Below, piece by piece: positions 7,241 to 56,345 of a stretch of DNA of 64,000 bases. The stretch spans positions 11,729-75,728 of the forward strand of contig SVHA01000006.1 of NCBI GenBank assembly GCA_015056085.1, in the 5' to 3' direction. Source of the stretch: Clostridiales bacterium. GTDB taxonomy: Bacteria > Bacillota > Clostridia > Christensenellales > Aristaeellaceae. Below the pieces are notes generated by a model. The model saw only the letters and a list, made by a program, of their open reading frames with translations, did no database searches and was not told the origin of the DNA. The translations under genes were made by a program, and so were the position numbers. Positions within the stretch are counted from its first letter, which is position 1. Every line of letters starts with the position of its first letter.

Positions 7241-9169
7241 TCAAAGCCCTTCCCGGGTATAGTTCAGCAGTCCGCCGCAGAGGATGCAGCCCCGCTGGCG
7301 GTCGGTGAGGGGCATCAGGACGGTGTAATCCTCCTGGCGGGTGAGGTTGCGCAGGATGAACGCTTCGCTGCCGCATTCCACCAGCGGGCGCAGGGCGGGC
7401 AGAATCAGTTCATCACCGGGGGCGATGCGGTCGTAATCCGCCTCATCGGCAAAGGTCAGGGGCAGAATGCCGTTGTTGATGAGATTCGCCTGATGAATCC
7501 GGGCGAAACTCTTGGCGACCACCGCCCGCACGCCCAGATACAGCGGCACCAGGGCGGCGTGTTCCCGGCTGGAGCCCTGACCATAATTGGCGCCGGCCAC
7601 CAGAATGCCGCCGCCGGCTGCCTTCGCCCGGGCAGGGAAGGTGGCGTCCACCGGTGTGAGACAGAAATCGGCAAGGTAGGGCACGTTTGAGCGGAAGGGC
7701 AGGAGCTTGGCGTCGGAGGGCGCAATGTGGTCGGTGGTGATGTTGTCCTCCATTTTCAGCAGCACCTGGCCGGAAACATCATCCGGAAGCGTCCTGCCCA
7801 TGGGGAAGGGCTTGATGTTGGGGCCCCGCACCACATCCACCGTATTTTCCTGACCGGCGGCGACAGGGGGAATCACCAGATTGTCGTTGATTTCAAAGGT
7901 TTCCGGCTGGGGGATGTCCAGATCGATGTTCAGGCTGCGGGGATCCGTCAGCACGCCGGTGAGGGCGGTGATGGCGGCGGTTTCGCAGGAAACCAGATAG
8001 ATGCCGGCGCTGCGGGTGCCGCTGCGGCCGTAGAAATTGCGGTTGTTGGTGCGCACGGACACGGCGCCGGACTTGGGCGACTGCCCCATGCCGATGCAGG
8101 GTCCGCAGGCGGATTCCAGAATGCGGGCGCCGGCGCCCAGCATATCCGCCAGGGCACCGTTGCGGGCCAGCATGGTCAGCACCTGCTTGGAGCCGGGGCC
8201 AATCACCAGACTCACATCCGGGTGAACGGTCTTGCCCTTCAAAATCCGGGCGACACGCATCATGTCCGTGTAGGAGGAATTGGTGCAGGAGCCGATGAAC
8301 ACCTGATCTACCTTGATGGGCCCGCATTCTTCCACGGTGACCACCTCATCAGGCATATGCGGGCGGGCCACCAGCGGCACGAGGGCGGAAAGATCAATGT
8401 GGATGACTTCGTCGTAGACGGCGTCTGCATCGGCGCACAGGGGGGTGAAATCCCTCTCCCGCTGCTGGGCACGGAGGAAATCCCGGGTGATTTCATCCGC
8501 CGGGAAAATGGAAGTGGTGGCGCCCAGCTCGGCGCCCATATTGGCGATGGTGGCTCTTTCGGGCACGGACAGGGTCTTGACGCCCTCGCCGATGTATTCC
8601 ATCACCTTGCCCATGCCGCCCTTCACCGTCAGGCGGCGCAGCACTTCCAGAATGACGTCCTTGGCGGCCACGCCGTAGGGCAGGCGGCCGGTCAGCTCCA
8701 CACCCACCACCTTGGGGCAGGAGAGGTAATACGCTCCGCCGCCCATGGCCACGGCCACGTCCAGTCCGCCGGCGCCGATGGCCAGCATACCCAGACCGCC
8801 GCAGGTGGGCGTGTGGCTGTCAGAGCCCAGCAGGGTCATGCCGGGCACGCCGAAGCGCTCCAGATGCACCTGATGGCAGATGCCGTTGCCGGGCTTGGAG
8901 CAATAGATGCCATGCTTTTTCGCCACCGACTGAATAAACTGATGGTCGTCGGCGTTTTCAAAGCCGGTTTGCAGGGTGTTGTGGTCAATGTATGCTACGG
9001 ATTTCTTCGTCCGCACCCGGTCAATGCCCATGGCTTCAAACTGCAGATAAGCCATGGTGCCGGTGGAATCCTGGGTGAGGGTCTGATCAATGCGGATGGA
9101 AATCTCCGTGCCGGGCGTCAATTCGCCGGACAGAAGATGGTCGGACAGGATTTTCTGTGTCAGGTTCAT
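7241..9169 (-). CDS. Aconitate hydratase (short ~640-aa clostridial/Aquifex-type aconitase)
   Basis: Fe-S ligand motifs GSDSHTPTCGG, IGSCTNSS and CGPCIGMG. Start chosen at ATG 9169 (MNLTQKIL), with AAGGAG 7 nt upstream, rather than ORF-track 9217. Confidence 0.9.
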   Translation of the reverse strand: MNLTQKILSDHLLSGELTPGTEISIRIDQTLTQDSTGTMAYLQFEAMGIDRVRTKKSVAYIDHNTLQTGFENADDHQFIQSVAKKHGIYCSKPGNGICHQVHLERFGVPGMTLLGSDSHTPTCGGLGMLAIGAGGLDVAVAMGGGAYYLSCPKVVGVELTGRLPYGVAAKDVILEVLRRLTVKGGMGKVMEYIGEGVKTLSVPERATIANMGAELGATTSIFPADEITRDFLRAQQRERDFTPLCADADAVYDEVIHIDLSALVPLVARPHMPDEVVTVEECGPIKVDQVFIGSCTNSSYTDMMRVARILKGKTVHPDVSLVIGPGSKQVLTMLARNGALADMLGAGARILESACGPCIGMGQSPKSGAVSVRTNNRNFYGRSGTRSAGIYLVSCETAAITALTGVLTDPRSLNIDLDIPQPETFEINDNLVIPPVAAGQENTVDVVRGPNIKPFPMGRTLPDDVSGQVLLKMEDNITTDHIAPSDAKLLPFRSNVPYLADFCLTPVDATFPARAKAAGGGILVAGANYGQGSSREHAALVPLYLGVRAVVAKSFARIHQANLINNGILPLTFADEADYDRIAPGDELILPALRPLVECGSEAFILRNLTRQEDYTVLMPLTDRQRGCILCGGLLNYTREGL

Positions 9170-54818: not shown

Positions 54819-54859
54819 AAAAATCGCTCCCGCAAATGGCGGGTGTCCGTAAAACAGTT
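54819..54859 (+). repeat. Left inverted repeat of the cassette
   Basis: aaaaatcgctcccgcaaatggcgggtgtccgtaaaacagtt. Confidence 0.8.
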
Positions 54860-54860
54860 T

Positions 54861-54895
54861 TTGAGGGCAGCCAATAAGCTGCCCTCAATTTTCTT
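54861..54895 (+). terminator. Strong intrinsic terminator
   Basis: ttgagggcagc-caataa-gctgccctcaa followed by ttttctt. Confidence 0.85.
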
Positions 54896-54962
54896 GCAAT
54901 ATGGCAAGATAGATGTTATAATAAAGTCAGAACGACAAATCAGAATTCGGAGAGGTGTCAAC

Positions 54963-55352
54963 ATGGCAACAGAGTATTATAAACCTTGCAGAGAATTAGA
55001 TATTTGCAATGAGTTGATTGAAAAATTCTTTAACACACAGCAATATGACAAATGCTTCGAGGGGCATTTAGTTCTCGCAGAACAAGGGTATCCCCTTGCC
55101 GAGTGCCAGGTCGGTTATTTTTACTATGATGGCTTGGGGGTAGAAAAAGACTTAGCGAAGGCGCTATATTGGACACGCCGTGCAGCAGAACATGGAGATA
55201 GGGATGGACAATGTAATTTGGCGTGGTTCTATGAAGATGCCATAGGTGTTGAGCAAGATTTGGAAACTGCTAAGCATTGGTATAGAATGGCGGCAATGCA
55301 AGACCACGATTTGGCTATCGAAAAATGTAAAGAACTCGGTATTGATTTGTAA
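54963..55352 (+). CDS. Sel1-repeat (TPR-like) protein
   Basis: GYFYYDGLGVEKDLAKALYWTRRAAEHGDRDGQCNLAWFYEDAIGVEQDLETAKHWYRMAA contains two to three Sel1 repeats. AT-rich codon usage. Confidence 0.8.
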   Translation: MATEYYKPCRELDICNELIEKFFNTQQYDKCFEGHLVLAEQGYPLAECQVGYFYYDGLGVEKDLAKALYWTRRAAEHGDRDGQCNLAWFYEDAIGVEQDLETAKHWYRMAAMQDHDLAIEKCKELGIDL

Positions 55353-55435
55353 CAACAAATTCCAGTTTATCGAGCCGACTAAGGGCGCACTTCTATACAC
55401 CGTTCGGTGTTGTTGTGCGGTGTGCGGCTCCAAAG

Positions 55436-55456
55436 CCTCCCTTGTGTAAAGGGAGG
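55436..55456 (+). repeat. Hairpin / inverted repeat upstream of the DUF559 gene
   Basis: cctccctt-gtgta-aagggagg, followed by cacggc-gta-gccgtg (55460-55474). Confidence 0.8.
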
Positions 55457-55488
55457 TGGCACGGCGTAGCCGTGACGGAGGGATTGTC

Positions 55489-55857
55489 ATGCAGTCAAAG
55501 CATAATAAGCAGTTGGTTCCGTTGGCAAAGCATCTGCGAAAAGAAATGACCAAAGAAGAACGGCACCTGTGGTATGATTTTCTTCGTGGATACCCTGTCC
55601 GCTTTTCCAGGCAGAAAGTGTTAGGAAAATATATCGCTGACTTTTATAGCGCGGAAGCAAGGCTAGTCATTGAACTGGATGGTTCCCAGCACTACGAAAA
55701 TAAGAGCATGGTAAAAGATGCTGAACGAACAGCCTTTCTGGAAGATTATGGGCTGACTGTTATCCGAATTCCCAATAATGAAGTCAGCAGGAACTTTCGT
55801 GGGGTCTGTGAGTATATCGATGCTGCGGTAAAACAATCCCTCAGTCAGCTTCGCTGA
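55489..55857 (+). CDS. DUF559 endonuclease-domain protein (Vsr/restriction-endonuclease-like fold)
   Basis: LRKEMTKEERHLWYDFLR...FSRQKVLGKYIADFYSAEARLVIELDGSQH...DAERTAFLEDYGLTVIRI. GGAGGG lies 6 nt before ATG 55489. Confidence 0.85.
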   Translation: MQSKHNKQLVPLAKHLRKEMTKEERHLWYDFLRGYPVRFSRQKVLGKYIADFYSAEARLVIELDGSQHYENKSMVKDAERTAFLEDYGLTVIRIPNNEVSRNFRGVCEYIDAAVKQSLSQLR

Positions 55858-55859
55858 CA

Positions 55860-55880
55860 GCTCCCTTTACACAAGGGAGC
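55860..55880 (-). repeat. Hairpin / inverted repeat downstream of the DUF559 gene
   Basis: gctccctt-tacac-aagggagc is the reverse complement of 55436-55456 except for the terminal pair. It is preceded by gtcagc-ttc-gctgac, which overlaps the stop codon. Confidence 0.8.
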
Positions 55881-56018
55881 CTTTCTCAGAAGCCTGTTAC
55901 ATGAGAGCAAGATTCTACCATGGGTCTAAATTTGACCATGGCAATCTTGTTGGGGCGTGCCTGCCCCAAACCCCGCATATGAAAAATGGAGCGTATCACA
56001 CAATTGGTACGCTCCATT

Positions 56019-56060
56019 AACTGTTTTACGGACACCTGCCCAAAGCGGGAGAGATTTTTT
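56019..56060 (-). repeat. Right inverted repeat of the cassette
   Basis: The reverse complement reads aaaaaatctctcccgctttgggcaggtgtccgtaaaacagtt. Blocks of 15/16 and 18/18 nt are identical to the left copy, and the central loop differs. Confidence 0.8.
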
Positions 56061-56063
56061 GTG

Positions 56064-56097
56064 CACGAAAAAGCATCCTGCGTTTTGCAGGATGCTT
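56064..56097 (-). terminator. Intrinsic terminator after the small minus-strand ORF
   Basis: The minus strand reads aagcatcctgc-aaaac-gcaggatgctt followed by tttcgtg. Confidence 0.8.
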
Positions 56098-56104
56098 GGA
56101 AGAT

Positions 56105-56284
56105 TTACAACACAATTTCATCTCTGTGCTCAATTAAGTACTGACACATGAAATCCAATTCTTCCAGCGTCAGAACACTGGCGGGATTAGGCTGCGAATC
56201 GTCTTCATGTGAATTGATTGGATAGGGGTACGGTTCTTTCAATGGATTATATCCCATTTTGGCACACAATGTTTCAAAATCCAT
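56105..56284 (-). CDS. 59-aa hypothetical protein (AT-rich)
   Basis: MDFETLCAKMGYNPLKEPYPYPINSHEDDSQPNPASVLTLEELDFMCQYLIEHRDEIVL. GGAGG lies 10 nt before ATG 56284. Confidence 0.5.
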   Translation of the reverse strand: MDFETLCAKMGYNPLKEPYPYPINSHEDDSQPNPASVLTLEELDFMCQYLIEHRDEIVL

Positions 56285-56345
56285 GATGCTGTTTCCTCCA
56301 TCACCCTTGCAACCGGCGGAAGCGAAAAACATTGAAGAGAATACA

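Follow-up and report, generated by a model that had tools for sequence, protein, structure and literature searches.

The nearest described relative of the element reported here is IME_Rho_tet, a published family of integrative mobilizable elements (IMEs) whose hosts are likewise gut Clostridia (Microb Genom 2026, PMC12904643). Elements that retain their att sites after the loss of integration and transfer genes are defined as cis-mobilizable elements (CIMEs, PMC5704250). The present study concerns a cassette at positions 54834-56044 of a 64-kb stretch of DNA from a Clostridiales bacterium (contig SVHA01000006.1, hereafter the window), which lies between the convergent operons of cvpA (PF02674) and an M42 peptidase (PF05343) and encodes a Sel1-repeat protein and a predicted nuclease of the DUF559 family. 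The evidence leans modestly toward a non-autonomous integrative mobilizable cassette, that is, a stripped-down IME, which sits at the apex of the cvpA/M42-peptidase terminator and is moved in trans.

Non-autonomous IMEs are already known as a kind. Like the serine-recombinase IMEs (Tn4451 family, IME_Rho_tet), the cassette has short terminal inverted repeats, a type ascribed to the sites of serine recombinases, and it shares with the Tn4451-type IMEs a putative MOBQ-type origin of transfer (oriT) and gut Clostridia as hosts. Like a CIME, it keeps its end sites and carries neither integrase nor relaxase. Unlike the IMEs, which measure 6-11 kb and target the MAFF2 open reading frame (ORF) or a GA site, the cassettes are 0.4-1.7 kb long and target the apex of an intrinsic terminator. 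Their streamlined backbone has its own promoter, two terminators and DUF559, and cargo is exchanged between fixed motifs. The unusual features are integration at a terminator apex, a constant and self-insulating backbone, motif-delimited cargo exchange and a conserved DUF559.

Composite arms and the family that shares their ends

The original prediction described inverted repeats of about 41 nt around a segment of sharply contrasting composition that carries Sel1-repeat and DUF559 genes, and all of these points were borne out. The arms (54819-54859 and 56019-56059) are 41 nt long, 85% complementary and separated by 1159 nt. The GC content of 54834-56044 is 0.452, against 0.598 for the window as a whole (standard deviation of 1.2-kb windows, 0.033), which makes the cassette the minimum-GC 1.2-kb stretch of the window, 4.4 standard deviations under the mean. 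Domain searches assign the two genes to PF08238 (E 1.2e-20) and PF04480 (E 1e-29). The inner 18-mer of the arms, GGTGTCCGTAAAACAGTT, occurs in two exact copies in the window, one per arm and inverted to each other, and shuffled sequence gave 0.00 matches even with up to 3 mismatches permitted. All family motifs found within the window are confined to the cassette.

Each arm is a composite. The outer 15-16 nt are the halves of a single bidirectional host terminator and do not belong to the element; the inner ~25 nt are the ends of the mobile element. The repeats thus mark the boundary of the element in their inner part only. On the left, the host half (54819-54833, plus strand) consists of an A-tract and the 5' half of the stem (AAAAATCGCTCCCGC) and is the reverse complement of 56045-56060 with one mismatch. 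The left element end follows (54834-54859, plus strand), with the A/T spacer AAAT, GGCG and the 18-mer, and is supported by both the inverted repeat and the family profile. The right element end (56019-56044, minus strand) comprises the 18-mer, GGCA and an A/T-rich spacer, as identified from the inverted repeat and the 18-mer match. Stem and T-tract of the right host half (GCGGGAGAGATTTTTT, 56045-56060, plus strand) are the complement of 54819-54833. The split terminator accordingly reads AAAAATC(G/T)CTCCCGC ... GCGGGAGAGATTTTTT. In a contig of the same species (L002, 6720 region), window position 54826 is T rather than G, and the host flanks are then complementary at 15 of 15 positions, which indicates that the G arose later, by mutation of the already split terminator. 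Read outward-in, the junction spacers AAAT and TTTG are neither identical nor complementary, which leaves no room for a direct duplication of the target or for a long overlap common to both junctions. Duplication of the target site or of a whole hairpin was ruled out in the same way, as the junction loops are neither identical nor reverse complements.

These composite arms bear on the simplest alternative, namely that no element exists and that the arms are two ordinary copies of a terminator motif beside horizontally acquired genes. The outer 15 nt are indeed terminator halves, similar terminators occur in unrelated genomes, and each cassette junction folds as a small terminator in a terminator scan. 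The inner 18-25 nt, however, form no hairpin and are exactly conserved in more than 100 genomes at the boundary between host and backbone, and the 18-mer is absent elsewhere in the window. This explanation is hardly credible, and the repeat is not a generic terminator motif.

An exact scan for the 18-mer with one genome per species returned at least 119 stretches, against a chance expectation of about 17 (own estimate, based on how large the scanned collection is). The 18-mer marks at least 110 related elements at different sites and with different cargo. Among the matches listed, the hosts are Clostridia, mostly metagenome-assembled genomes (MAGs) of Oscillospiraceae, except for about eight coding or chance matches. 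In locus L062 and a few unrelated genomes, the 18-mer falls by chance in coding sequence, lacks the A-run and hairpin context and does not denote membership. The same applies to four IMG/VR matches (L153-L156), for which membership in viral contigs was considered and rejected: they are chance matches in coding sequence (peptide AGVRKTV) within genes that look tape-measure-like, a description by look and not by annotation. True matches are flanked on one side by variable sequence, in which an A-run precedes 8-13 GC-rich nt, and on the other by a hairpin followed by the conserved backbone. In 38 of the at least 119 stretches, fewer than 150 nt of the element precede the contig end, as is typical of multi-copy repeats.

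An inverted partner of the 18-mer (consensus GGTGYNCRTAARACAGTW) lies 0.38-4.6 kb away in about 30 loci among the matches listed. Every one of the about 30 complete copies (0.07-4.6 kb) splits a site-specific terminator palindrome without direct target duplication, and the outer flanks are inverted repeats of each other that differ from site to site. An exact flank word with at least 7 non-A letters is shared by 18 of 31 true pairs, compared with 1.1% of mismatched pairs. The position profile anchored on the 18-mer shows an A-run (-25 to -18), a GC-rich stem (-17 to -9), three A/T positions (WWW, -7 to -5), G (93%), R, C and G, and then the 18-mer. No shared overlap of 6-8 bp occurs at the junctions across complete elements, and the junction spacers differ. 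Twenty of 25 elements lie between long reading frames whose 3' ends point toward the element, an observation that is supportive only, such frames being partly spurious in GC-rich DNA. The smallest member is a mini-element of 68 nt (L092:1026-1094), with one diverged end, one terminator hairpin and one exact end, inside the split palindrome CCTCCCGG...CCGGGAGG. Type (a), the commonest sub-type, shows identity along 80 nt or more in dozens of genera, Merdimmobilis hominis NSJ-153 being one of its hosts; conjugative spread is expected to give such identity, and some genomes hold several identical copies. Full-text literature searches, whether on DUF559, on cassettes that target terminators or on the sequences as such, turned up no description of these elements, and the one related statement retrieved concerns the enrichment of DUF559 genes near inverted repeats (PMC9881135); the family is widespread in gut Clostridia and apparently undescribed.

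The family resembles MITEs (miniature inverted-repeat transposable elements) and insertion sequences (ISs) with passenger genes in its terminal inverted repeats, its lack of autonomy and its sizes down to 68 nt. It could be an IS derivative moved by a DDE transposase that prefers hairpin loops, comparable to IS1397 and ISKpn1 in the loops of repetitive extragenic palindromes (REPs) and the mosaic elements that they form (BIMEs). The size series from 68 nt to 4.6 kb and the hairpin as target niche fit this explanation. Direct target-site duplications are nonetheless missing, the flanks being inverted and the junction spacers different, no transposase or parent IS with these ends was found in about 150 loci, and the backbone holds an oriT-like site and remnants of IME genes, so that a MITE-like origin is very unlikely. 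The niche of a terminator or palindromic hairpin, which implies a low cost to the host, is shared with IS1397 and ISKpn1 and also with group IIC introns. Unlike these introns, which lie 3' of the terminator, the cassettes sit at the hairpin apex, contain no intron RNA domains (D5 and others; Rfam negative) and encode neither reverse transcriptase nor transposase.

Short, inversely oriented sites, varied cargo and the absence of an own recombinase also recall the XerC/D-dependent pdif modules of Acinetobacter. The pdif sites, however, are 28-bp two-armed XerC/XerD sites on plasmids, whereas the cassettes occupy chromosomal terminators. The segment GGTGTCCGTAA presumably resembles the XerC arm of dif; a Xer/dif (11-6-11) reading was rejected, because only one arm is conserved and the 11 nt of the would-be second arm differ between sub-families.

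Backbone, exchangeable cargo and an oriT-like site

The conserved order of the backbone is end, terminator, promoter, swappable single-gene cargo, MOBQ-type oriT (a sequence-based assignment), DUF559 module, terminator and end. In the window, hairpin T2 (54861-54888), a bidirectional terminator predicted on both strands by the terminator scan, lies inside the left end and has an equivalent after the 18-mer in nearly all members. It is followed on the plus strand by a predicted cargo promoter (54894-54922; TTGCAA-17-TATAAT with an extended -10 TG, 10 of 12 matches in the promoter scan) and, in the 5' untranslated region, by the cargo-boundary motif GACAAATCAGAATTC (54934-54948). The cargo itself is the Sel1-repeat protein (129 aa, 54963-55352, plus strand), replaced in other members by unrelated genes. 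The second, inverted copy of the boundary motif (GATAAACTGGAATTT on the minus strand) lies at 55357-55371. Immediately inside the right end, the terminator scan predicts a second terminator, hairpin T1 (55985-56018); its 14-bp stem runs into AACTGTTTTA, a sequence that already belongs to the element end.

The inverted pair of the 15-nt motif GAYAAAYTKGAATTT brackets the cargo in most complete elements, and cargo exchange falls exactly between its two copies. The promoter-side backbone is constant across the family, with ~107 nt from the element end to the motif. Cargo elsewhere in the family includes a peptidase S51, a sigma factor, a PNPOx-like protein, an ANT(2'')-like nucleotidyltransferase, a HAD hydrolase, a SAM methyltransferase, LytTR with DUF3021, BioY with DUF1284, an arylamine N-acetyltransferase, GNAT acetyltransferases, an XRE regulator and a radical-SAM/DUF5131/MarR trio. 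Sel1 is thus the only cargo of the window cassette. The original prediction, which counted Sel1, DUF559 and the hairpins together as cargo, holds for Sel1; DUF559 and the hairpins, like the promoter and the oriT-like site, are family backbone. Pfam and NCBIfam scans of the ORFs, together with tblastn searches with a large serine recombinase, found no transposase and no integrase or recombinase gene inside the elements, and the absence of a recombinase noted for the window cassette extends to its relatives. Relaxase genes were likewise absent from the elements (Pfam/NCBIfam, tblastn with MobQ), with the sole exception of a truncated mobQ in L037.

Diverse single-gene units (acetyltransferases, small proteins without assigned family, resistance-like enzymes), imperfect palindromic boundaries and an enzyme encoded elsewhere are also properties of integron cassettes. 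Unlike these, the family lacks attC (R''-L''...L'-R', GTTRRRY), an attI/intI platform and arrays: what follows the GTT of the 18-mer varies, and no adjacent cassettes were found. The cassettes further differ in having their own promoter and terminators, a solitary position in a terminator, an oriT-like site and a predicted nuclease gene.

The oriT-like site (55382-55410, minus strand) is an inverted repeat ACACCGAACGGTGT followed by ATAG and AAGTGCGCCCT. It is near-invariant in the family, its core being present in 24 of 30 complete elements. The segment AAGTGCGCCCT after the inverted repeat fits both the MOBQ oriT consensus NWACCNNTAAGTGCGCCCTYNN (PMC3832669) and the Gram-positive oriT consensus NcgtNtaAgtGCGCcCTta (PMC10333310), and the conserved block is consequently regarded as a putative, oriT-like transfer origin of the MOBQ type. 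The motif GTGCGCCC had suggested the 5' end of a group II intron through a match to a ClosTron primer; this candidate was dropped, as the motif fits the MOBQ oriT instead and Rfam searches with permissive thresholds came back empty for both the window region and 8 related loci.

Relatives of type (a) connect the family with complete IMEs. In place of the DUF559 ORF they carry ~200 nt of hairpin-rich DNA, and their internal region is ~90% identical over ~260 nt to the stretch directly upstream of DUF3847-mobQ in two elements. The first match (L048:5283-5548 against L157:7029-7290) is to a Tn4451-like IME on the Campylobacter coli plasmid pCC14983A-1, whose gene set comprises a large serine recombinase, TnpV, MobQ and TnpW; Campylobacter belongs to a different phylum. 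The second is to the Pusillibacter plasmid pMM59_01 (L143). Type-(a) copies terminate in the 3' remnant of a tnpV-like ORF, and another sub-type has a full tnpV, so that the likeness to Tn4451-type IMEs covers both the identity upstream of mobQ and the tnpV or mobQ remnants. A 4.6-kb member with the same ends (L037:3097-7700) contains a disrupted tnpV, an ATPase (AAA_14/DUF4143) and the truncated mobQ, which matches the relaxase of the Campylobacter IME at 76% identity across 120 aa; it seems to stand midway between complete IMEs and the small cassettes.

The DUF559 module

The DUF559 protein (122 aa, 55489-55857, plus strand) is a Vsr-like PD-(D/E)xK predicted nuclease. Its PF04480 match (E 1.2e-29) spans residues 11-113, and the closest solved structure is PDB 3HRL (E 5e-12), a Neisseria 'endonuclease-like protein'. 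The D...ExDGxxH core is intact, and ADF...IELDGSQH is conserved in the alignment. To our knowledge, DUF559 (PF04480) is a very large and abundant orphan nuclease family without known function, and the cassettes would offer the first coherent genomic context for it, together with concrete candidate DNA substrates. A role in defence was considered and set aside, PADLOC having given weak matches to nuclease domains only.

The gene is enclosed by nested inverted repeats, 55432-55461/55855-55884 (30 nt, 90%) and the 15-nt pair 55473-55487/55833-55847, in agreement with the inverted hairpins originally attributed to it. The 5' arm (55432-55487, plus strand) comprises hairpin A, hairpin B and the Shine-Dalgarno region GGAGGGATTGT; the 3' arm (55833-55884, plus strand) comprises the complement of that region (ACAATCCCTC) and hairpins B' and A'. 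Both arms are supported by the inverted repeats and by covariation between DUF559 clades (CTCCCTT/AAGGGAG, CTCTCCC/GGGAGAG, CTCCCTC/GAGGGAG), and the Shine-Dalgarno region has stayed complementary to the 3' end of the ORF although both partners have changed. The ribosome-binding site could thus be masked by base-pairing with this part of the ORF, and expression would stay low.

DUF559 belongs to the backbone and not to the cargo. Thirteen loci with the 18-mer contain a homologue (50-91% protein identity), and in each of them the gene stands 90-165 nt from an end, points outward with its 3' end and is accompanied by hairpins in an unchanged order. The ratio of nonsynonymous to synonymous substitution rates (dN/dS) is 0.02-0.14 at dS ~1, which places the protein under strong purifying selection and indicates that protein, ends and oriT-like site have been maintained over a long divergence. 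A search with the protein retrieved at least 8000 clusters at 90% identity, many on short contigs, and homologues picked by protein alone, without reference to the 18-mer, again lie in cassettes with the same ends and palindromic flanks. Three loci of one sample (L149, L150 and L151; ERZ28633636) encode an identical 122-aa DUF559 protein at different chromosomal sites with different cargo, including a 161-aa protein without assigned family and a GNAT acetyltransferase, which suggests recent multiplication or cargo exchange within one population. In the DUF559-less elements L121, L122 and L075, a single hybrid hairpin, A0 (e.g. GGCTCCCTTgtgtaaAGGGAGCC), stands exactly at the site that the module and its two flanking hairpins occupy in the close relatives L030, L133 and L097. 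In L041 both arms are retained and 50 nt replace the ORF. The presence or absence of DUF559 at hairpin A0 could reflect either insertion into the hairpin apex or deletion promoted by the inverted arms.

Two further explanations give DUF559 an active role. The first, raised in the original prediction, treats it as a homing-type selfish gene. Free-standing homing endonuclease genes with a Vsr-like fold are known, such as I-Bth0305I of the EDxHD family, and the module resembles them as a small gene of this fold that is present or absent at a defined backbone site; the DUF559-less relatives with one hybrid hairpin at A0 provide such a clean presence/absence pattern. Strong purifying selection and the fixed position of DUF559 weigh on the other side, and a homing-type gene is one possible reading. 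DUF559 also differs from the EDxHD endonucleases in its location in long hairpin arms on an oriT-bearing cassette and in having no known cleavage activity or target.

The second explanation is that DUF559 is the mobility enzyme of the cassette itself, and that its structure-specific cutting of hairpin or cruciform apexes (terminators, hairpin A0) drives insertion or homing, with DUF559-less copies being non-autonomous. It is the only protein gene conserved in the family, in a constant place and orientation, and its low dN/dS despite dS ~1, its abundance on short contigs, the three identical copies with different cargo in a single sample and the recovery of ends and palindromic flanks from protein-picked homologues all fit such a role. 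The module, moreover, replaces one hairpin of its DUF559-less relatives with the geometry of the cassette in its terminator, and 'DUF559 domain-containing protein' is 14-fold enriched among inverted-repeat-associated genes (PMC9881135). Strand transfer by a 122-aa Vsr-like protein is, however, without known biochemical precedent, and most copies, including the most widespread type (a), lack DUF559. A deletion that joined the short repeats in hairpins A' and A, with the inverted repeat as stimulus, would explain the DUF559-less state equally well, and the oriT-like site and IME gene remnants indicate a recombinase/relaxase lifestyle. DUF559-driven insertion is therefore possible but on the whole unlikely. 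Equally tentative is the broader proposal that DUF559 is the nuclease of a new kind of mobile element, which would insert inverted-repeat-flanked DNA at hairpin apexes, into terminators in the case of the cassette and into an internal hairpin in the case of its own module. Combined with the oriT-like site and promoter-equipped cargo, DUF559-driven insertion would amount to an integron-like cassette system scattered over the terminators of gut Clostridia rather than arrayed.

Mobility of the cassette and its proposed mechanism

The reading as a stripped-down, doubly parasitic IME accords best with movement in trans, as originally proposed for a cassette without a recombinase: the ends are common to at least 110 elements at different sites and with different cargo, and no recombinase accompanies them. 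Integration and excision would be carried out in trans by a site-specific recombinase, most likely of the serine type, as in Tn4451-like or IME_Rho_tet-like IMEs. Serine recombinases act on inverted half-sites with a 2-bp crossover, and this property, together with the serine-recombinase IMEs among the relatives, favours them here. The joined ends, an attP-like palindrome, would pair with the terminator palindrome as attB, and the crossover would fall in the A/T-rich spacer of 3-8 nt. The excised circle would transfer through its oriT by means of the MobQ relaxase and type IV secretion system of a co-resident element, and excision would restore the terminator, with the predicted sequence AAAAATCTCTCCCGC-[A/T loop]-GCGGGAGAGATTTTTT. 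While the cassette is integrated, its end hairpins would again terminate transcription of the host genes and shield the cargo promoter, so that the insertion would be nearly neutral. DUF559 would serve as a maintained accessory predicted nuclease.

Several observations weigh against this reading. No cognate recombinase was found in the window, and none is tied to the ends in any element. The 18-mer is absent from the TnpV loci on Pusillibacter and Subdoligranulum plasmids and from the Campylobacter Tn4451-like IME, and the 5' boundary of IME_Rho_tet, read from three tet(W) plasmids, also lacks it and is only weakly like the cassette ends. Type-(a) copies that are otherwise identical differ in the outermost ~7 nt of their ends, so that a single crossover dinucleotide is not fixable. 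Searches of JGI metagenome contigs, a weak test since these are assemblies, gave two matches for an empty site of the cvpA locus, both unrelated terminators, and none for a circular or tandem joining of the two ends. Of 18 same-species contigs, 15 carry the cassette with 100% identity, and there is no sign of current mobility; samples that contain the species include ERZ27248446 and JGI 3300031555. Finally, the strong conservation and fixed position of DUF559 point to a role more central than 'accessory'.

Some of these observations concern potential sources of the enzyme. TnpV was considered as a lead to the recombinase and dropped, since those TnpV loci carry no 18-mer. In L096 and L122, large serine recombinase genes are found in the neighbourhood of the elements but not within them; the two adjacent genes of L096 (1046-3963) are located 3.8 kb outside the cassette end at 7749. 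For IME_Rho_tet, the mutual similarity of three tet(W) plasmids from Lactobacillus and Limosilactobacillus (L158, L162 and L163) ends at ...ATAATGCTCATGTACGGTAAAGAAGC..., a point ~660 nt upstream of tet(W), in keeping with the distance published for its 5' end. The core TGTACGGTAAAG of this boundary bears a loose resemblance to TGTMCGTAARAC of the cassette ends. Among the IMEs whose ends were readable, none has the 18-mer.

The identity of the same-species copies also raises the alternative of an immobile fossil, a decayed CIME of a once-complete IME that became fixed and whose conserved features reflect inheritance. The cassette looks fixed in the source species, no empty site turned up, and the CIME definition fits (PMC5704250). 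Family-wide conservation of ends, oriT-like site and hairpins while the synonymous sites of DUF559 are saturated, identical copies in many genera with several per genome, and cargo swapped within a constant backbone are difficult to reconcile with a fossil, which is quite unlikely as an explanation; these features point to an active lineage even if the window copy is now static. Apparent decay of the L002 and L009 copies was dismissed, the altered gene calls being a gene-calling artefact and not frameshifts. The cassette is also not ancestral in all relatives: in the nearest other species, CvpA homologues with 64-74% identity keep the upstream synteny and have neither cassette nor repeat downstream of cvpA, where different genes preclude a clean comparison of the empty site.

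If the family is as it appears, it represents an overlooked layer of horizontal gene flow in gut Clostridia, in which kilobase-sized single-gene cassettes, each equipped with a promoter and a transfer origin, sit in terminator hairpins at almost no cost to the host and rely on other elements for recombinase, relaxase and mating apparatus. As the cargo includes an ANT-like gene, acetyltransferases and regulators, the family is relevant to the spread of resistance and accessory traits, and the elements also bear on the frequent contig breaks in MAGs. Should the enzyme come to light, a new recombinase-site pair would be defined by the conserved ends together with the terminator palindromes that they target.

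Beyond the right host half of the terminator, the AT-rich patch was originally traced through a 59-aa ORF. The low composition was correct (GC 0.425), and the ORF lies outside the element. It corresponds to a 75-aa ORF (59 aa from an internal ATG) at 56105-56332 on the minus strand, downstream of the M42 peptidase, with no Pfam, NCBIfam or PADLOC match and no family motif. Accompanied by a terminator hairpin (56066-56096), this ORF may be a separate, older acquisition.

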